DNA of 42,912 bases from Stramenopiles sp. TOSAG23-6 (taxonomy: Eukaryota): positions 1 through 42,912 of the forward strand of contig LT635934.1 in the NCBI GenBank assembly GCA_900128565.1, read 5' to 3'. The notes under the pieces are model-generated. The model saw only the letters and a program-made list of their open reading frames with translations. It was not told the origin of the DNA and did no database searches. The stretch's first letter is position 1; every line of letters starts with the position of its first letter. Shown here piece after piece: positions 1-42,912 of this stretch. The translations under genes were made by a program, and so were the position numbers.

Positions 1-1334
1 CACCGCGCACAGATCTGATTTTTTTTGAAGATTAAGGATTTTTGGAAAAAATGGTAGGGGGTCTGAAATTTGACAAAAAATCAATTGTATACGGATTTTC
101 GTACCTAAGGCTCCTGAGCGTCCATATTTGTCGATATTTTTAGATAATTCTTTGGTGCAGCTGCAACATTATCTGCAGGGATTTGTTAGTAAAAATGGAA
201 GGGGTCTGAAAGTTCAAACCTTCGAGTATGTCAAGGAGAACTCGGATTTTAAAATAATGCATTTTTGACTTTCGTATGGTTCGACCAAAGTAAAGTATAT
301 TGTTTCGTCTGCATTATATACATTGTTCATTGTATCATTTCAAAAAACCAAACCCCCAGTGACATACTATGCGATTAGAACAGATCAACAGTAAAACTTT
401 GGTCTTGAAAGATGAAATATTTTTTTTTGGAGGTGCACCACAAAATAGTTTCTCAATTTCCCACGAAATGGGGGGTGGAATTGGTCGCCGCAAATGTCGT
501 ACAAAGACTACTTTGAAAAAGTCTGAAATACCTACAGTTGATGTTGCTGATATTGCATATAATAATTACAACGGTCAGCACTTTAAAATCACATATAGCG
601 AACTTGTAGGTCAAGAAAATACACCTGTGAATACCTCAAATACAAAGAAATCACATCAAAAGATCTTTATGTAAACTCCTTAAGGAAGTTACTACCCAAC
701 ATAATGATAATGTAGAAATATGAAAATTGATGGATACTGAAGCGAAATAAAACGCATATATTACTGGAGATGCAACCAGAGTTGAGTTTCCAGCAAGTAT
801 TAAGCTATTATTGCAATGGTACTAGACATGTGGTCTTTGTTCATTTATGAGAGAAACACTTAACCTTGTAAACAACTTATTTTTCAAGAATTGTCTTTAT
901 TTTAGTGCATATGAAATATACTAGACCAATCTAAAATAACAGGAAAACGTACCAATGCAATAATTAAGTTTGATATTAACTTTATCTTTTGATTTTAGTT
1001 GTCTTCTGTTGCATGCCCATGGCACGGCAATTTATCTGTAAAGATGACAAATAAGTACGAAATTTTGTACCAAAAAAAAATATCCCCTTTTCACTCAATA
1101 ACTTTACACCAATTAATAGAGGAAGGTTCTGTGAGTTCAGAAGTGTCTTTACATTGAAAAAATATTAATTCTTTGTCATTCTACAATAAATCTATTTTGA
1201 ACTGTTTTAGAGTATTTTAGAGTAAAACAGCTCAAAAATTTCAGACCCCTTGCCATTTTTGCCTTTTTGGTACGAATTTTTTCGTACTTAATATTTTTCT
1301 TAATCTTCAAAAAAAATGAAATCTGAGCGCGGTG
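1..1334. mobile_element. Putative non-autonomous TIR DNA transposon (MITE/MULE-like relic); left end at or beyond the window edge
   Basis: 1-36 (CACCGCGCACAGATCTGATTTTTTTTGAAGATTAAG) is the reverse complement of 1299-1334 at 33/36 positions. A second inverted block pairs ~46-72 (AAAAATGGTAGGGGGTCTGAAATTT) with ~1236-1260, with a further direct copy at ~191-212. TACGAAnTTTCGTAC-like palindromic motifs occur at ~90, ~1055 and ~1270. No transposase is recognisable inside, and a TSD cannot be assessed. Confidence 0.6.
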
Positions 1335-6033: not shown

Positions 6034-6354
6034 GTTATCTAATGATAATTCTTGAGCTATTGGATATCGAAGACGATAACACGATACCTGACCGCGACCT
6101 GAATTCGAGTGAAAATTTGGAATCATCGGCGATTTTATTTATTTACAGTTACCACCTCAGGCAGGCAGGCTCAGTAGTAGCTATATATACGTATGCATCT
6201 ATACCCTTCAGTGTCCCTGATGACTATTAAGCTACCCTTTGTGTACGGTACGCATTAAGCTTTGTGCTTTACAAGATTTATCCCATGGTGGGGTTGGAAC
6301 ACACCGCTAGGACCATTGTAGGCTATCAGAAGTTATAGGAAGCTTCTTCAAGCC

Positions 6355-13298: not shown

Positions 13299-14240
13299 AT
13301 GTCAGCACCACCTCCAGATCCAGCAAGGCTTCCCAAGAATCAAGGCTACAGCTGGGGATCCTCAACGTCTATTTCCACAAAGCACGTTAACGGTAATATT
13401 GTTAAAACAACGATAACGAAATATAAGGTCACACTTACCGATGGTACTCTCTACGACTCGTGGGAGGAGGTAAAAACTGAAGATTGTGGTTCTGTGAAAA
13501 CAAAAGAAATGAGTGTAGTACCTGGAACAAAGGATAAAAAGAAACAAAGCGTAGCACCTCCAGATCCATCAAGACTTCCCAAGAATCAAGGCTACAGCTG
13601 GGGATCCTCAACATCTACTTCCACAAAGCACGTTAACGGTAATATTGTTAAAACAACGATAACGAAATATAAGGTCACACTTACCGATGGTACTCTCTAC
13701 GACTCGTGGGAGGAGGTAAAAACTGAAGATGGGGGTTCTGTGGAAAAAGAAGCTCTTGGTGTATTACCTGGAAAAGATGATCTTCAAAAACAATGCACTC
13801 TTTGCCTCAATAAAGGTTTGCCTTTAAATGAAAAGTTATTAAAATTTGTTTACTCAAAACATTCACAAAAAATCGGAGATGGGCAGTGTTATGCAACAGC
13901 TGCTGTAACTTTGTCTAGTATTGGTGCACGAGAAGCTCGTGGCTTCGATTTTGGAAAGAAGATAAAAGAGACTGAAATTTATCCTGGTGATATTATTCAA
14001 TTCAGCTGGGCTAAATTTAAAGGTAATAGTGTGGGAGGTGGTACGTATCAGAAAAATTGTGGAAATGCCGCTTCAAATGGAGCACATACAGCCATTGTTT
14101 ATTCTTACGATGTCAATACCCGATCTGTATGTACACTAGAACAGAATATGAATAATATATTAAAGGTATGCTTTGGTGGATATGCATTCGAGGACATGTA
14201 TGAAGGTAGTTTTGATGTATTTAGACCAGTTGCGAAATAA
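13299..14240 (+). CDS. Protein with two near-identical N-terminal repeats and a C-terminal CHAP/cysteine-proteinase-like fold (AIM3/BBC1 C-terminal-like)
   Basis: First ATG at 13299; the C-terminal domain carries IGDGQC, PGDIIQF, HTAIV and LEQN, a Cys-His-Glu CHAP-like arrangement. Confidence 0.7.
   Translation: MSAPPPDPARLPKNQGYSWGSSTSISTKHVNGNIVKTTITKYKVTLTDGTLYDSWEEVKTEDCGSVKTKEMSVVPGTKDKKKQSVAPPDPSRLPKNQGYSWGSSTSTSTKHVNGNIVKTTITKYKVTLTDGTLYDSWEEVKTEDGGSVEKEALGVLPGKDDLQKQCTLCLNKGLPLNEKLLKFVYSKHSQKIGDGQCYATAAVTLSSIGAREARGFDFGKKIKETEIYPGDIIQFSWAKFKGNSVGGGTYQKNCGNAASNGAHTAIVYSYDVNTRSVCTLEQNMNNILKVCFGGYAFEDMYEGSFDVFRPVAK
13307..13742 (+). repeat. Internal direct duplication of ~190 bp, period 246 bp
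   Basis: 13329-13484 and 13575-13730 differ at only 2 positions; both encode LPKNQGYSWGSST...WEEVKTED. Confidence 0.95.
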
Positions 14241-15094: not shown

Positions 15095-15221
15095 TCCCCG
15101 CAAAAGAGACCTCGTTGCTACAATAAAGCTCCTTATTTTCTGGGCATCAAGAAAGGAACAGCAGGAAGTTTAATTGGGTGGAGGAAACTGGTCGTGTCTC
15201 TTTCAATAATTGAATTTAGCA

Positions 15222-17634
15222 ATGCTTGACGAGTCCGATGATGATATTCCCCTCAGTATGATGTCGAAGAAAGTCAAGAAAAAGGAAAAACATGCCGACT
15301 CGTCTGATTCTGAAGATGATAAGCCCTTGAGTAAGTTGAGTGTTATTAAGCAAATTGGAAAAAAAGTGAAGAAAGAAAAACTTGTCACGAAGGATCAAAA
15401 TAGTAAGGTCTTTACTAGTCCAAGTGTTATTAAGCAAATTGGAAAGAAAGTGAAGAAGGAGAAAAAGGTGAAAAAAGAGAAAAAGCACAAGAAGGAAAAG
15501 AAGCACAAGAAGGAGAAAAAGCACAAGAAAGATAAAAAGCACAAGAAAGAAAAGAAATCATCCAAAAAACGATTATTATCCTCAATTTCGAAGAATTCTC
15601 CAAAAATAACAAAAAAACGACGAAAGAGTAGCACATCTAAAGGCAAGAGTGGTCCCCAGCGAAGCATGAAAGTGATAAATGAGACAGAAATGCTTGACGG
15701 CGCCATGAAAGCTCACAAGTGGTGGGAAGATCCACCTACTAAAGAGGTGATGGGAGATAATGGTGAAATGTTTTTGCCTCAGTGGTCTTCAATGGAACAT
15801 ATTGGTGTTATATTTCCTGAGGCGCACGATTACTCGTATGATGACAATGGTAATCGTGTCTGTATGAAATATGATGGTCAGGATGTTGATCTTACTCTTG
15901 AGCAAGATGAAGTTGCGTATTTTTACGCTAAATCTTTAACTGCGATGCAACTTCAAAAAGAAGAAACAGCAAAGATATTTAACAAAAACTTTTTTGCTGG
16001 TTTCAAGAAAGTTTTGGGTAGAGGCCACATAATAAAAGATTTCAAAAAGTGTGACTTCACTCCTATCAAAGCTAGGTTGGACGTGTTGCGTGACCGGAAG
16101 AAAGAATCCAGTAAAGCTGTAAAGAATGCCGAAAAGGAGAAACGCGCTGTGGTGCAACGTACGTATGGTTATGCTTTAGTCAACGGTCGTGTCCAACGAG
16201 TCGGAAATACTACTATTGAGCCTCCAGGACTTTTCAGAGGTCGTGGTATTCATCCTAAAATGGGAACTATTAAGAATCGTGTACCACCAGAAGCTATCGC
16301 TATTAATGTATCTCGATGTGCTGCTGTGCCGAAATGTCCCGTCCCAGGACATGCTTGGGGTGCTATCGTACACAAACCTGATGTCACATGGCTGGCTATG
16401 TGGAAAGAGAACATCAATGGCAGTGTTAAATATGTTTACTTAAATAGTGGTTCTGCATTCAAGGGAAAATCAGATAGATCTAAATACGAGAAAGCGCGAA
16501 AGTTGAAAAATTATATCTCGAAAATTCGCAAGGATTATCGAAAAAAACTTACTGCCAAAAATTTAGAAACTGCACAACTTGCGACAGCTATGTATGTTGT
16601 TGTTTTTTTCAATTTCGAATTTATTTTTTTCATACGAAATTTCGTACCTAACAAAAACAAAAGAAAATATTTTTTTACAATACATGTGGGTCATTGATGT
16701 ATTAGCACTTCGTGTTGGTGGAGAAAAGGGCGAAGACGAAGCTGATACTGTTGGATGTTGCTCTTTACGAAAGGAACATTTTACGTTTGAACCAACGGAG
16801 GATACACCATATCCTTCTGATATGTGTTTTACGCTTGATTTTCTTGGTAAAGATTCTATGCGTTATTTTGAAGTAATTGACTTAGGTACCGAACGACACC
16901 AGGTTGACGGTATTGGAGCCAAAGTGTTTGCTAATATTAAGAGATTTTGGAAAAAGGCCAAGAAACCTGGTGATGATATATTTGATAGACTCAATCCGTC
17001 ACTATTGAACGACCATTTAAGAAGTCTCATGCCTGGATTAAGCGCCAAGGTATTTCGTACTTTTAATGCTTCAATCACATTAGAAGAAAAGTTACCGCTT
17101 CGTATACCTTCTGATCTAGCTGGCGCTGAACAGTTGCTTATATATAATGCCGCTAATCGTGATGTGGCTATTTTATGTAATCATCAACGGTCGGTTCCTG
17201 CTAGTTTCGATAGTAGTTTCAAGAAGTTGAAAGATCGTGAAAAGTTGAAAAGCAAACAACTCTCCGAATTAAAGGAACATCTCAAGCGACGTAAAAAAGG
17301 TAAGGACATTAAACTACAGCCTAAGGAAATGCCAACTGATAAAGCAGAAAGAGCAAAAATCTCACATCTATACAAGTCTCAGCCAGATCCATCAAAGTTG
17401 CGCAATCGTATTGCAACATTCGAAAAACAGGTAAAGAATATGCGCGATAACATAAAAAACAAAGATGACAACAAGACAGTTTCTCTCTCTACATCAAAGA
17501 TTAATTATATGGATCCTCGCGTGACTGTTGCATGGTGCAAGCGTAATGAAGTTCCTATAGAGCGTGTATTTCCAAAAGCTTTGCAAGATAAATTTCCTTG
17601 GGCTATGAGTGTCCCTGAGTCATGGAGATTTTAA
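15222..17634 (+). CDS. TOP1: DNA topoisomerase IB; exons 15222-16591 and 16686-17634 (772 aa if spliced)
   Basis: Lys-rich N-terminus; EPPGLFRGRG.HPKMG; KYEKAR; catalytic ALRVG, FLGKD, KVFRT, CNHQ and INYMDP motifs all intact. Removing 94 nt restores QLATAM-WVIDVLALR. Confidence 0.93.
15339..15556 (+). repeat. Lys-rich coding repeats in the TOP1 N-terminus (SVIKQIGKKVKKEK x2; KKEKKH-type 18-bp units)
   Basis: Visible in both DNA and translation. Confidence 0.85.
16592..16685 (+). other. Non-canonical 94-nt intron (GT...AT, equivalently AT...AC at 16590-16683)
   Basis: GTATGT donor, CTAAC branch-like motif 16648-16652, T-tract and end TACAT. ATGT is duplicated at both junctions. Removal is required to restore the TOP1 frame and a conserved motif. 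Confidence 0.75.
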
Positions 17635-32932: not shown

Positions 32933-35900
32933 ATGAATATGTTTGAGGTGAGAAGTGAGTCTTCGGATTCATTCCAGTCTTCGGAATCATTCCAAGAAGT
33001 TGACGAATTAGCTAGTAATATAAAGTTGGGAGCTAGTGTTATTCCTGATATTCAGCATTCTTCATCAATCCATATGGAGAGTAAAAGAAATACATTCAAT
33101 CAAATATATAGATCAAATCTTCTTGAGAAAAAACTAAGTTGGAAAAGTGGACAGGTAAAGTCCCTTAAAGCAAAAATAAAAGCACTAGAAGTGAAATCTA
33201 ACTATGGAAAAAGACAGCATGCTTTGGGAATGAAAAACATGGAAGATAAAGTTAAAGATCTGGTCAAAACTAATCACAAAACCATTAAGGAAATAACTGA
33301 TTTGCATCAGCTTGAACTTGATAAATTAAAATATATTCATGAGAAAAAGATCATTGAGCTTGGTAACGAATTGCTTCAGAAGCACGCTGAAGAAAAAAAG
33401 CTTATTAGGAAATCTACGAATGAAATGTTAGAATTGAAGGATCAAACTATAAAAAAACAAGATCGGGAATTATATGAAGAACGATCACAAAATTGGAAAT
33501 TAGAAATCAATAATAAGGAGTTATCGAATTCTCATAGTTTAACTTTAAAAAGAAAGATAGAAAATCATCACGACGAAATTGTTTCACTTTCAAAGAAACA
33601 ACAACTATCACTAGAACAGCTTAAAACACTTCACGAATTAGAAAATTCAGGTAAGATACAGAACTTGAAGGCGAAACAGAGCGAGGTAATTCGGTTGTTA
33701 AAAATGAGAATACGTGCTGAGGAAGAAGCACACGAGGACACTAGAAAAAAGAGTAGCACTGCAATGGCTGAAGCTCATGGAATTCACAATAGTGCAATTC
33801 AAACACTATCAAAAAAACACCAGCAGGAAACTGAATCATTGAAAAAACAAAATGAACTTCAGTTGGCAATTTCAATGAAAAACCAAGCTAAAACACATCG
33901 ATCAGAAATTGACCGATTGAAGTCTCTTTCAGAAAATGATATTGGTCACTTTGAGGAACTTCTGAAACGCTCAGATGCCCAGGCTAAATTTCATAAGAGT
34001 AAAGTAAAAGAATGTGAAGAGAAACACGATGCTGTTTTAAAAAAACATGTAAATACATTAAATGAAAAAGAAAAGATGTCAGCAGATCTTCTCCGCAAAA
34101 CGATAAATCTGCATACAGAAGAGATTTCGAAAATCAAAGCTGAATACGAAAACAAACAAAATGCTGCTGTGCGAGAAATAGTAGAAAGTAATTCGTTAGA
34201 AATGCAACAAATGAAAGATGTAGCGCGCAAAACGAAAATAGAAATGGATGAAATAAAAATCAAGCACAAAGCTGAAGTTGATTCTCTTAATTGTAGCGTG
34301 GATGAAGTTAAAATACTTTATAACAAAGCCCTTCAAAAGCATGATGTAACAATGAACAAACAGAAACAACAACATGGGAATGATTTATTGGAGGTGGAAA
34401 GGAAATACGAAGAGAAGCTGTCCGTTTCAGCAAAGAAATTGCACTCTGATCATATCAAGAAAACGAGTAATCTTTCTGAGATACACTATAAAAAAATTGA
34501 AGAACTTGAAACTAAATTGAGAGACTGTGAAATAAATTGCGCTGCTGTACAGCAAGCTAAAGCAATAGAATTGAGTCAGAAAGATATCGCTCACAAAAAA
34601 GCTATGGCAGAATTATCTACTGCCCATATTGGGGCGATGGCAACTGCAGCCATCAAGTCAAATGGTGAATTGGAACATACAGTTGCCGAGATTTCCGATA
34701 AACACTTGTCGGAAACTAAGCGTATTACATCGCTGGCGGAACAGGACAAACAGAATTATTTAGACTTACTTGAAAAATGCAGATCAGAAACTTTGAAATA
34801 CAAGGCCGACGTTGAAGTGAATAAGCTCAATGATGCTAAAACATTAGAAAGACATGCAAAAATACTCTTAGATAAAGAAAAGGATCATGAAGCAACATTA
34901 CATGAAGTAAAACAAGTACATGAAAAACATCTTTCAAAACAAGCAAACGAACATGATTTAAAATGTTTAGAACTAGCAGAAAAATTCAAGAAACAGCAAG
35001 ATGACACATTATGTGAACTCCAAATTGAACGTAAAAGACATGGAAATACTTTATCAGAGTGGGAATCGAAATATAATCATGCTATACAAAAACATAAAAT
35101 ATCTGAACAGCGCATGGAAAATGCACACCACTTAGCCTTGGAAGAAATCCGTAAAGAGTTAAATGAAAAAAATACTTTCTTAGCAGCTAAATATTCTAGA
35201 GAAAATGCTGTTTTAGTGAATGATCTCAAAAGCATTCACGAAAAGCAGATTAGATCACTCCAGTCAGAACAATATACTGCGATAAACAAACTTAAAGATA
35301 ATCATGCGAAGGACGTAAAGGGATTAGAATTAGAATTACGAAATTGGGAAATTAGGTGCAACAAAAACAACAACACACACGCAGCAATGATCCGTGGTAC
35401 AGAAACAGCCCAACGAGATGCAATTCACACATTACGTCAAAAGCACGAAGTGGAACTATCTGATGTGGTAAGAAAGTATCATGGAGAACGCAAAGTTACA
35501 ATAACTGATTTGAAAAGCAAACATAGAGCAGAGGTCGAAGCTTTGAATACTAAAAATATAAAATTACAAAATGAATCTATTGAATGGGAAGAAAAGTATG
35601 CTAATTTGATGAATTCTACATCAATAAATAGTCGAGAGCAAGATAAAAAGCTTCACAAACAAATCTCCGAGTTGGAGGAATACCGACGCACAATTGCAGA
35701 GATGTCAGTGAAGCATCAAAAGAAAATTACGGATTTGACTTTAATTTCCAAAGATTGGGAAGAGAAACATACTAAGATGATGGCAAAATATCATATTTCG
35801 ATGAAGGATAAAGAAGATGAACACGCTACTGCTTTAGACTTACATTTGAATACTTTGAAGGAGACCAAGGAAGAGCATCAAAAGATTAAGACTGAAATGA

Positions 35901-36675: not shown

Positions 36676-38055
36676 TTAATTACGTAACACAGCAGATGCT
36701 ACTAAAGTTACCAAACCACACCAATACAGTGACATTAATGCCAACTGTGAAAAGGCTGGTTTCAAGGTAGTTTGAATCGTTGAATACGGAGAATTTTTGT
36801 CAGCCAGAATAAAAAGATGAGCAGTTGATAATGCTGCAGCACCAGTTAAGCCAAGCCACTGTGGAAGCGATTCTTGTTTTAAAGAAATTGGATGTCCGTA
36901 ACCAATTCTTGCAGCCGCGCGCCAACACATACCCCCAATAACACCAAAGAAAGTACAAAGTATAGCATCCAAACGAAAATCACCTAATCTGGTGGACATG
37001 AACAATAACATTAGCGGTACAATGGTGATTAACATTAGAGTGGCTTCAAATGGAACGAGTTCACCTTTGTGTGTCGCTGAGTTAAATGCAAGAGCAAAAG
37101 CAAAATTTCCAACTGTGTAGGACATAAGCATTACAATAAAATTCGAAGTTTCATCACTTCTAAGTGGATTGATGTTAATATGCTGTAATATTTCTGCTGC
37201 AATATACCACACCATTCCAATGGCAATCCATCTTGCGTATTTTTCTTTTTCTCCCTTGACTTTAAGCACTGCAAAAAGAGAAATTAGGGATGGAACTACC
37301 ATTGTGGAAAGACGAATCCAACGCAACACTGACTGTGCTCCTTTCAATGTACCATCTTCGTACATTTTTGCAACATTTGTTTCATGCACACCATTGGTAG
37401 TGTCTTCCCAACCTGTTTCACTTGGGCTGTCCAAAATATTTGCAGGCCACCACCAAGGGCCCTGAGCGCCGTGAGTTTTTAGTGTTCTTTCAAGACCTCC
37501 GTGTACAAGAAAAGCACAGAGAACGTTTGATACAATACAAAAACCTAAAAATGTAAATAATAGAATTGCTCTTACATTAATACCTTCTGATATATCGTGG
37601 AATGAGGGCACTCTTCCTCTTGATTCTTTGGGTGTCTTCACTGATTTCTTAGTTTTGGTTTTGGGTGTTCGTTTCTTGAGTTTTGGAGACTCAGACTGTG
37701 GAGATGATTGTTTTGAAGATGAAGATTTACGAAGGGGTGTCTTCGATCGACTTCGCTTGGTTGGTGTTTTCTTGGGTGTCCCCTTTTTAGATTTTATTGG
37801 TGTTTTCTTGGGTGTCCCCTTTTTAGATTTTATTGGTGTTTTCTTGCCTGCTCCTTTTTTAGCCTTCAATTTTTTTTCGAACTCTTGGATATCCTTCTTC
37901 ATACCATCGGATATCATGTGTTTCCGAGTTTCCCATGTGTTGTCCGAAGTGGAATAACCTTCCCATTTGATCAAATATTGAATAACCCCTTTATGCTTTC
38001 TTTTATCCAGGATTTTTTCAATAGTAAAGTATTCATCTGCATCTGCATTTCCCAT
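36676..38055 (-). CDS. Chromodomain + basic TPxK linker + YhhN/TMEM86-like multi-pass membrane protein
   Basis: EYFTIEKILDKR....QYLIKWEGY...NTWE chromodomain; C-terminal helices with MCWRA, GAAAL and LYWCG..LVASA similar to the YhhN family. Confidence 0.85.
   Translation of the reverse strand: MGNADADEYFTIEKILDKRKHKGVIQYLIKWEGYSTSDNTWETRKHMISDGMKKDIQEFEKKLKAKKGAGKKTPIKSKKGTPKKTPIKSKKGTPKKTPTKRSRSKTPLRKSSSSKQSSPQSESPKLKKRTPKTKTKKSVKTPKESRGRVPSFHDISEGINVRAILLFTFLGFCIVSNVLCAFLVHGGLERTLKTHGAQGPWWWPANILDSPSETGWEDTTNGVHETNVAKMYEDGTLKGAQSVLRWIRLSTMVVPSLISLFAVLKVKGEKEKYARWIAIGMVWYIAAEILQHININPLRSDETSNFIVMLMSYTVGNFAFALAFNSATHKGELVPFEATLMLITIVPLMLLFMSTRLGDFRLDAILCTFFGVIGGMCWRAAARIGYGHPISLKQESLPQWLGLTGAAALSTAHLFILADKNSPYSTIQTTLKPAFSQLALMSLYWCGLVTLVASAVLRN
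37761..37846. repeat. Coding tandem repeat, 36-bp unit x ~2.4 (KKTPIKSKKGTP)
   Basis: Exact repeats start at 37761 and 37797, with a partial copy at 37833. Confidence 0.95.
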
Positions 38056-38161
38056 TTTGCTATCTTCGAGATGAGAGAGTTGCTCGATCTCAGATCATTC
38101 ATTCAAATACGCCTCAGGTTCGCGTGTACACGTTTTTTTTTGAAGTCGAAGTCAGTGTTTA

Positions 38162-41979: not shown

Positions 41980-42912
41980 TTAAAGTGGTTGTCTGTGTAG
42001 AACTTGATCGATTTGTTGAGTGAAATCAGCAGTATTGGTCTCAACTTTTAGTTTCTTTCCTTCACTTATGGAAGTACTTTTTGTACTTGTAGGTTTATTA
42101 TCATTTTCCTTACGCTTTCCCTGATACTTTATCTTTCCAAAATTTGTGTTCTTAAATTGAAGCCAATTATCATCAGCAGTAATAATTGCTTCTTCTATAG
42201 TTGAATCATTTTTTATCGTACTGTCATCATCAATACTATAAGACATATTATCATCAAAACCATTTGTAAGTGAAGTATTTAATGCATGAGAACTTGATCT
42301 TTTATGAAAACGGATACGATCCCTTGAATTTGTGGTAAAACCGTCGGTGATATTTGTATATATATCCCTGGTATGATCGATTCTTTGTGTGTGATTTCTT
42401 TGTATAGATGATTTTGTCCTAGAATGTTCCGTCAAAGAAAATGGTTTTCGAAGTTCTCCTAAAAGTTCGAGCATATCAGTGTATACATCACCTGTTGAAT
42501 GTGATACCTTGTCCATTTCAGTTCCTATTATCTGTAAATTGTTTTCCATCAATGTGTTGTATTTCTTCAATGATTGAAAATCCGTTTTTTGATTTTGCTC
42601 ATGAAAAATATCTTTCGTTTTTACTATATTTTTTTCCATTAATGTGTAATACTTTTTTGAAGATTTGAAATCCTTGTCTTGATTTTGCTCATGAAAAGTA
42701 TCTTTAGCTTGTAGCATGTTTTTCGCAATTTCAATTTCATCATGGGTGAAAATTTTGACATTTGAGGGAATTTGCATCTCTGTCTTTCGTTGTATTATCT
42801 TCATATCAACTGAATCTTGTTGCGTAAAATTATCATCTGTTTTAACTTGCTGTGATCTACCTGAATTTTCTAATTCGTGAAGTGTTTTAAGCTGTTCTAG
42901 TGATAGTTGTTG
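41980..42912 (-). CDS. 5'-truncated gene; shares an in-frame segment with the 1202-aa coiled-coil protein
   Basis: Frame is open to the window end (QQLSLEQLKTLHELENSGRSQQ...DMKIIQ); internal 90-bp-period repeat at ~42541-42705. Confidence 0.7.
   Translation of the reverse strand, partial: QQLSLEQLKTLHELENSGRSQQVKTDDNFTQQDSVDMKIIQRKTEMQIPSNVKIFTHDEIEIAKNMLQAKDTFHEQNQDKDFKSSKKYYTLMEKNIVKTKDIFHEQNQKTDFQSLKKYNTLMENNLQIIGTEMDKVSHSTGDVYTDMLELLGELRKPFSLTEHSRTKSSIQRNHTQRIDHTRDIYTNITDGFTTNSRDRIRFHKRSSSHALNTSLTNGFDDNMSYSIDDDSTIKNDSTIEEAIITADDNWLQFKNTNFGKIKYQGKRKENDNKPTSTKSTSISEGKKLKVETNTADFTQQIDQVLHRQPL
42858..42912 (-). repeat. Exact 55-bp inverted copy of 33599-33653
   Basis: The reverse complement reads CAACAACTATCACTAGAACAGCTTAAAACACTTCACGAATTAGAAAATTCAGGTA, identical to 33599-33653. 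Confidence 0.97.

Follow-up and report, generated by a model that had tools for sequence, protein, structure and literature searches.

What kind of sequence interrupts the TOP1 gene of Stramenopiles sp. TOSAG23-6, and why does it share a motif with an element bearing terminal inverted repeats (TIRs) at the start of the same contig? The window analyzed here is the whole 42,912-nt stretch of contig LT635934.1 (assembly GCA_900128565.1), in which a 94-nt insert splits TOP1 and a 1,334-bp TIR element occupies the left end. We consider it likely that what interrupts TOP1 is an introner, a short mobile element of non-autonomous type that duplicates 2 bp on insertion and is removed exactly as a GT...AT intron, and that the TIR element shares with it the motif only. 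Family copies number in the thousands in this genome.

An insert ending in AT within TOP1

In genomic DNA, TOP1 consists of two overlapping open reading frames (ORFs) in different frames, the first of which (15210-16697) covers exon 1, and removal of 94 nt (16592-16685) yields a single frame with a terminal stop only. The resulting junction reads ATAMWVIDVLALRVG, a segment that is gap-free in the 30 best homologues printed, and the ORF from the joined exons carries ATAMWVIDVLALR, as homologues do. Homologues of exon 2 carry PF01028 and PF14370, and the nearest named relatives of the protein come from labyrinthulomycetes, oomycetes and other stramenopiles (~45-53% identity), with further hits at 55-77%. 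The DNA is present in seawater sequencing runs, and the host is probably an uncultured marine stramenopile. All in-frame pairs of a GT or GC donor with an AG acceptor near the insert (24/24) delete or replace WVIDVLALRVG, which argues for an intron without a usable AG; an AG at 16662-63 lies past the branch site and must be skipped by splicing.

The preliminary description had reported a 20-mer shared by the insert and the TIR element, with a palindromic core, a branch motif at its tail and short inverted ends, and direct reading bears out each of these points. The 20-mer ATACGAAATTTCGTACCTAA at 16632-16651 recurs in the window, at three mismatches or fewer, at 89-108 (18/20, two mismatches) and 1055-1074 (three), where shuffles expect 0.01 matches, and 1270-1291 is a fourth variant, in which the T run is longer. 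Its core TACGAAATTTCGTA (16633-16646) is a perfect 14-bp palindrome, followed by CTAAC at 16648-16652. In addition, the AT at 16590-91 recurs at 16684-85, and the ends GTAT...ATAC of the element are directly visible. The shared motif is therefore confirmed as a real feature of the two sequences.

As for the check proposed earlier, whether relatives lack the intron at this position, none of 80 distant homologue loci, some of which may be transcripts, shows an insert there. The site is uninterrupted in 70 of these metagenome loci (best 59% identity), and the remaining 10 are truncated, broken a few codons upstream or interrupted by an in-frame stop; the core motif has no match in the 80 loci. 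The intron position thus appears not to be ancient, its age not being bracketed by homologues this distant (<=59%).

A family of thousands of sense-oriented copies

A genome-wide search revealed 4,852 matches to the exact core TACGAAATTTYGTACCTAAC in the 21.1-Mb assembly and none to the reversed control. Because some contigs duplicate each other (C13/C14, C443/C444), 4,852 overstates the number of distinct loci; in 200 kb picked blind, on the other hand, relaxed matches outnumbered exact ones by 72 to 21, and a figure of about ten thousand copies is an extrapolation. The search with the TOP1 insert gave 2,336 first-look candidates, and all 40 that were scored showed 82-100% identity, with matches bounded near the insert borders. 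Such sequence-similar introns are scattered across unrelated genes, and viral contigs held no match to the core.

The loci examined, many of them picked for holding copies and hence biased as an estimate of density, contained 318 core matches, of which 34 were too close to an edge, 59 did not pass the boundary scoring and 7 were dropped as duplicate, tandem or of odd length, leaving 218 for analysis. The introns have a median length of 98 nt (range 81-138), and all insertion phases are used (68/48/59). Of the 206 copies with clean flanks, 176 have an open sense frame once the element plus 2 nt is cut from the DNA, compared with 49, 51, 48 and 52 for cuts of +0, +1, +3 and +4 nt and 35 in antisense. 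Taken together with the duplication described below and with the uninterrupted TOP1 site in distant homologues, the high copy number, the sense orientation in coding sequence and the frame restoration uphold the earlier proposal of an introner-like family that makes new, non-canonical introns.

The distribution of the family is uneven, with one intron in the 43-kb window and none in C437:1-50000 and yet 16-18 in some 10-kb loci, which may reflect regional exclusion or an assembly bias caused by repeats that break contigs. Tandem or nested copies adjoin directly at several loci (L006 ~750-900, L016 ~900, L056, L086 6486-6648), and telomere-like CCCTAA repeats (TAACCCTAACCCTAA) occur inside several family introns (L002 ~1990-2030, L086, L092, L093, L143).

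A two-base duplication specific to each locus

The duplication was assessed by comparing matches within a locus with those of shuffled loci, as in a survey of introners (PMC9860276). The base before the left T equals the base before the right T in 154 of the 218 copies, compared with 128.0 expected (p = 2e-4), and the second duplicated position matches in 172 compared with 163.3 (p = 0.002); the match does not extend to neighbouring positions (p 0.30-0.99). The duplication is 2 bp long and locus-specific. Of the AT/ATGT duplication suggested earlier, the AT thus stands and the longer ATGT falls, bases 3 and 4 giving p = 0.77 and 0.94.

T is present on both sides in 166 copies. Among these, a left A is accompanied by a right A in 115 of 118, and the 48 copies with C, G or T on the left have A on the right in 30 cases, the left base again in 18 and never a third base. 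The left dinucleotide is AT in 137/218 and varies like coding DNA, and the right one is AT in 162/218 and AG in 8. The flanks are enriched in C at -3 (0.37, background 0.16) and in G at +3 (0.55, background 0.20), a context suggestive of a palindromic CATG preference, which would fit a dimeric transposase and also resembles the consensus of a proto-splice site.

This resemblance lends some weight to a spread through RNA by reverse splicing, or to blunt insertion at NAT|G, in which case the apparent duplication would be a context that resembles the intron end. The right AT at 30 of the 48 non-A left sites, the very short TIR and the sense orientation of every frame-tested copy would fit such a route, the last of these being expected from selection under any mechanism. 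However, the right base, where it is not A, equals the left one in 18 of 21 copies (GT/GT 8, TT/TT 8, CT/CT 2; p = 2e-4), and matching non-A pairs are impossible for an element with fixed ends, so that we give this route a slight chance. A Helitron-like blunt insertion between A and T was considered and set aside, as it leaves the GT/GT, TT/TT and CT/CT pairs unexplained.

Splice signals and the register of removal

The donor is GTAYGT in 160 of the 218 copies (GTATGT 99, GTACGT 61). With the register favoured below, the intron ends are GT-AT in 144/218, followed by GT-GT (11), GT-TT (9), AT-AT (7) and GT-AG (6), the rare classes including mis-called ends. The 3' triplets are CAT in 133/218 and TAT in 29/218, that is, YAY with mostly AT, as in Fritillaria, and the 3' motif of the family precedes AT at 1,012 places in the genome and AG at 48. 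Upstream of it, CCTAAC lies 31-58 nt from the intron end (distance quartiles 34/38/42), and the T, A and A of CTAAC are kept in 218, 215 and 218 of the 218 copies, which were selected by this core. The 3' part is thus laid out as branch motif, T-tract, A/CAATAY and duplicated dinucleotide. As the left dinucleotide behaves like exon and the right copy like intron, most of these introns would be GT-AT.

Cutting two bases earlier would instead give AT-AC introns, of U12 or U2 type. TOP1 and 115 AT/AT copies yield the same mRNA either way, and the element ends in AC in most copies. However, the left dinucleotide is AT in a part of the copies only, with coding-like variation, and the next hexamer is a standard GTAYGT donor, whereas the right copy is steadier and is sometimes AG. 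Together, the donor, the eight copies ending in AG and the asymmetry between the two sides favour the GT...AT register. The earlier register also creates a stop in 2 of the 44 asymmetric copies listed, a list biased by its selection for an open GT-AT frame. U12-type introns have an ATATCC-like or RTATCC 5' site and a short branch-to-end distance, neither of which is seen here (GTATGT/GTACGT; 31-58 nt). U2 snRNA (small nuclear RNA) is present in the genome, and U12 snRNA gave no match, as did its search control. We therefore regard the AT-AC register as highly unlikely and retain removal from GT to AT, probably by the U2 spliceosome.

An AG lies between the branch site and the intron end in 57 of the 218 copies and would have to be skipped, which argues against a choice of the first AG as the end. 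An exclusion of AG from this interval was considered and set aside, since AG is depleted in one half of the element (35 vs 142 expected) as in the other (60 vs 145) and does not discriminate. An ordinary GT-AG intron is present in a ribosomal protein gene of the window (~2019-2334), which suggests that AG and AT ends are both used in this organism. The 3' half of the palindrome, which overlaps the branch site, is conserved in the family and the 5' half varies without compensation, a contrast inflated by the selection of copies on the 3' half. A hairpin function was rejected: shuffled sequences fold as well as the TOP1 intron does (z = 0.49), and compensatory changes are absent from the core.

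Altered first bases (AT, GC, GA) were observed in a few copies (L086 2736, L097 5908, L119 2171 and 3977, L123 2403). In addition, 3 of the 11 copies starting with AT end in AC, which recalls the covariation of first and last bases.

RNA and population DNA reads

Two RNA and two DNA runs were mapped on C18:20501-29767, a locus with 16 parsed copies that was chosen for asymmetric copies. Here and elsewhere, several observations weigh against exact GT...AT removal of a mobile element. No spliced joint was found among the 15 displayed at this locus, 429 others being hidden by repeat contigs that swamped the output. The listed RNA pieces touching intron borders carry intron bases; one of the pieces (6044-6114), taken up as a candidate junction, was discarded because it begins with intron bases. 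No empty allele was seen either, in contigs that drop rare alleles and so limit this view: at the sites reached by the listed pieces, DNA run X3 passes from flank to element. An in-frame AG lies within -45..+30 nt in 68 of the 174 non-AG copies, and within 9 nt in 14, so that a minority could be spliced canonically. The TIR of the introner amounts to a GTAY/RTAC-like 4 bp, or 6 with the duplication, and no transposase with introner-matching ends was found in searches of the incomplete assembly for PF13359 and PF02992. For comparison, a clear TIR was defined by a threshold of 6 nt in the introner survey (PMC9860276).

The copies with differing sides are a further difficulty. Drift of the exonic copy after insertion is suggested by non-A left bases, which are more frequent at third codon positions than at the others (21/48 vs 34/127), and by matching non-AT pairs, which are nearer to the family templates than XY/AT copies (medians 5.13 vs 4.64, n = 22/47), with p = 0.044 and p = 0.033 uncorrected among several tests. 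The right base shows no such excess of departures from A at third positions (3/48 vs 20/127). XY/AT pairs are found in 14 of the 72 most template-like copies (top third), which drift alone explains poorly.

These observations raise the possibility that the inserts are not removed exactly, the genes being broken, mis-assembled or spliced at a nearby AG; the absence of a direct RNA junction in the C18 mapping and the in-frame AGs near some copies would then be expected. Against it stand the frame restoration reported above and the 106 of 174 non-AG copies that have no in-frame AG within the same interval. In-frame AGs downstream are barely commoner than in a control stretch (103/84/82 vs 88/89/95), and in TOP1 the alternatives lose the conserved LALR segment. 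Moreover, the elements occupy the same C18 sites in X3, an independent run of seawater DNA with ~0.6% other differences, which suggests that the insertions are shared with another population. Inexact removal therefore seems scarcely credible to us, and exact removal as GT...AT introns remains the better account.

The 1,334-bp element and the shared motif

The TIR element has 36-bp arms at 1-36 and 1299-1334 that are 92% complementary, and a second subterminal repeat at 40-71 and 183-214, inverted at 1236-1263. It is present in two copies in the assembly, the second of which begins contig C206 and is identical over 1-1334; with left flanks taken from C437 and C2743 and paired by inference from a collapsed assembly, the duplications are GC (2 bp) and TCA (3 bp). 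Its longest stop-free frame is 103 aa without a Pfam match. Its CAC ends and 2-3 bp duplications suggest that it is a non-autonomous element like those of the CMC (CACTA/Mirage/Chapaev) transposons, a group that also bears subterminal repeats and captures host DNA.

Could the introner derive from this family, or be mobilized by it in trans, with the palindrome serving as a subterminal binding site for the transposition protein? The motif is enriched in the element: its 1,334 bp include three copies, two close to the ends, compared with 8 matches in 785 kb that a loose criterion places outside an introner-like context. One copy of the element has a 2-bp flanking duplication, within the 2-4 bp described for CMC elements (PMC4482050), and motif clusters outside introns occur on C3243 and C1264. 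However, the termini are unrelated, CACCGCGC...GCGCGGTG (CAC...GTG) compared with GTAY...ATAY, and homology is confined to the motif of ~20-30 nt. The 5' half of the palindrome is unconserved without compensation, the element has two copies only, and a search of the incomplete assembly for PF02992 transposases gave none, its control likewise matching nowhere. Two of the three motif copies have introner-like flanks, as captured pieces would. We consider such a derivation unlikely, with some residual chance. The link proposed in the preliminary description thus stands as far as the enrichment of the motif is concerned and finds no support for the element as a source family, given the different termini, the motif-only homology and the lack of a transposase-sized ORF.

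The element carries host-like DNA, and a Harbinger-type element (see below) carries a shrunken introner, which together suggest that the motif moved into transposons and not out of them. The 1,334-bp element is probably not the parent of the introner: that it captured the motif seems as probable as parentage, or more so.

Clusters of GTACGAAATTTTGTACCAAAAA that lack the branch motif also occur outside introns (L027, C3243:3050-3385; C1264; L029, C141). The related motif of C3243 and C1264 has 16 exact matches genome-wide, and such clusters may point to a shared protein-binding motif. The second copy of the element (L022 1335-1400, C206; L023, C2743) apparently lies just downstream of a minus-strand family core, and its insertion site would be an intron-like stretch ending in AG.

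Candidate autonomous partners

A Harbinger-type element of 3.1 kb (C2432:503-3609, L147) has two ORFs, GGCC ends and a PF04827/PF13359 transposase, with TAA on the one flank examined, and the 3' region of its transposase (3' untranslated region) holds an internally shrunken introner. It was rejected as the parent of the introner because of its GGCC ends. The element is apparently an intact PIF/Harbinger. Its transposase domains lie in a 508-aa frame, a convergent frame of 350 aa resembles Myb/SANT on visual inspection without Pfam support, and the locus is repeated on four redundant contigs. A second DDE_Tnp_4 transposase, in a 420-aa frame, is located at C4153:389-1648 (L146).

Proposed mechanism and its meaning

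We propose that the insert represents one copy of a non-autonomous DNA element, short (~80-135 nt) and with ends GTAY...ATAY, probably moved by cut-and-paste transposition, which would favour C-AT-G-like sites and duplicate two target bases. The element would supply the 5' splice site GTAYGT, the branch site GTACCTAAC and the T-tract, and the intron would take its final two bases from the downstream copy of the duplication. The major (U2) spliceosome would then cut GT...AT and, less often, GT...GT, GT...TT or GT...AG, restoring the coding sequence exactly, with the 3' cut probably placed by the T-tract and the A/CAATAY motif and not by AG scanning. Later, the exonic copy may drift, or non-AT acceptors may become AT, or both. 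The motif in the TIR element would most simply represent decayed or captured introner pieces, or else a common ancestral motif.

Few splicing signals are as conserved as the 3' AG, and departures from it en masse have been described in few lineages. Thousands of GT-AT introns beside GT-AG introns in a stramenopile would be an independent case, in which it could be tested whether relaxation of the acceptor preceded and permitted the introner invasion or followed it, and which parts of the spliceosome change. The NT/NT and NT/AT patterns may likewise be read as a record of the insertion footprint and of later selection on the acceptor. On the practical side, gene prediction with standard tools would split TOP1 and similar genes here, and a GT-AT family would escape surveys of introners built on annotated introns. 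A more ambitious version, to which we give a small chance, holds that this stramenopile relaxed the AG check independently of tunicates, so that almost any 2-bp duplication serves as an acceptor, that about ten thousand introns arose from one element, and that the palindrome is both the branch context and the site of mobilization by the CAC transposon.

Features of the window

The features of TOP1 and of the TIR element are collected in Table 1.

Table 1. Coordinates of the TOP1 insert and the TIR element in the 42,912-nt window
Feature	Position	Strand	Basis or remark
TOP1 exon 1, coding part	15222..16591	+	ORF analysis, homologue comparison
Upstream AT of the 2-bp duplication	16590..16591	+	Exonic; bases 1-2 of a Met codon
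Putative TOP1 intron, 94 nt, GT...AT	16592..16685	+	Element 16592-16683 plus downstream AT; removal restores the ORF; family member
5' splice site GTATGT, left end of element	16592..16597	+	GTAT is the inverse of the terminal ATAC
Palindrome TACGAAATTTCGTA, 14 bp	16633..16646	.	Family conservation asymmetric
Branch-point-like CTAAC	16648..16652	+	Putative branch A at 16651, 34 nt before the intron end
T-tract and right end of element TTTTTTTACAATAC	16670..16683	+	Direct reading, family comparison
Downstream AT of the 2-bp duplication	16684..16685	+	Putative 3' splice site, context CAT
TOP1 exon 2, coding part	16686..17634	+	ORF analysis; PF01028 and PF14370 in hits
Non-autonomous TIR element, CAC...GTG ends	1..1334	.	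Two assembly copies; flanking duplications GC or TCA
Left TIR	1..36	+	Inverted-repeat search
Motif copy 1 in TIR element	89..108	+	18/20, without introner flanks
Host-like piece of TIR element	896..1011	+	C97 79%; C70 89% over 950-1011
Motif copy 2 in TIR element	1055..1083	+	Also in non-intronic repeats on C3243 and C141
Motif copy 3 in TIR element	1270..1291	+	Upstream T run, downstream ATATTTTTC, as in the introner
Right TIR	1299..1334	-	Inverted-repeat search

Elsewhere in the window, two 242-nt direct repeats of 90% identity (13309-13796) duplicate a domain within one ORF, and a chromodomain is fused with a multi-pass membrane domain at 36676-38094 on the minus strand. An exact 55-nt inverted match between 33599-33653 and 42858-42912, at the contig end, is probably an assembly overlap, and the last ORF of the window may belong to a coiled-coil gene or be a misjoin.

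Comparison with known systems

Introners are known in Micromonas pusilla, Aureococcus, Chrysochromulina and others (PMC9860276; PMC11282704), and further non-canonical introns in Polarella and euglenids (PMC11282704). In the literature consulted, which included passages of PMC12130899, PMC5778133 and bioRxiv 10.64898/2026.04.17.719054, we found no GT-AT introner family reported from a stramenopile. Families with unfamiliar splice sites are described as kept only if supported by RNA in one of these (PMC12130899). The DNA-level tests for introners point to such a family in a new lineage, with AT as its non-canonical acceptor. Like known introners, it consists of short multi-copy introns at new positions (PMC9860276; PMC11282704), and, as described for Chrysochromulina, the element would bring the 5' site and the duplication the 3' site, leaving the length of the mRNA unchanged (PMC9860276). 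Unlike the surveyed introners, as far as that account describes them, it has a duplication of 2 bp instead of 3-9 bp, an acceptor AT, GT or TT instead of AG, and a TIR of ~4 bp (PMC9860276).

Among transposons, the ISL2EU group of PHIS elements is described with the same 2-bp AT duplication (PMC4482050). Its target is A|AT|T, whereas here A(-3) at 0.24 and T(+3) at 0.16 are below background and C and G are enriched; no ISL2EU-type element with introner ends was found in the assembly. The 1,334-bp element resembles CMC transposons in its CAC termini, subterminal repeats, capture of host DNA and duplications of 2-3 bp, within the 2-4 bp described (PMC4482050), and differs from them in that no transposase was found, in its two copies only and in the unequal lengths of its duplications.

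Amoebophrya, likewise a marine protist, is reported to carry multi-copy, introner-like non-canonical introns with target-site duplications and TIRs (PMC11282704). There, the duplications are of 3-5 nt, the boundaries varied and U1 apparently absent, whereas here the 5' site is canonical and a branch motif is present. The closest parallel to the acceptors is the tunicate Fritillaria, for which transposon-derived non-canonical introns, a U2 spliceosome and duplicated U2AF subunits are described in F. borealis and F. pellucida (PMC13326754). In both systems AT is the commonest 3' end (44% in F. pellucida, 34% in F. borealis) and YAY stands at the intron end, often also before the 5' site. Unlike the main classes of F. 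borealis, which start with AG, the introns described here have a standard donor and branch motif and deviate in the acceptor only, and one sequence family dominates. As one host is a tunicate and the other a stramenopile, AT acceptors would have originated independently in the two.

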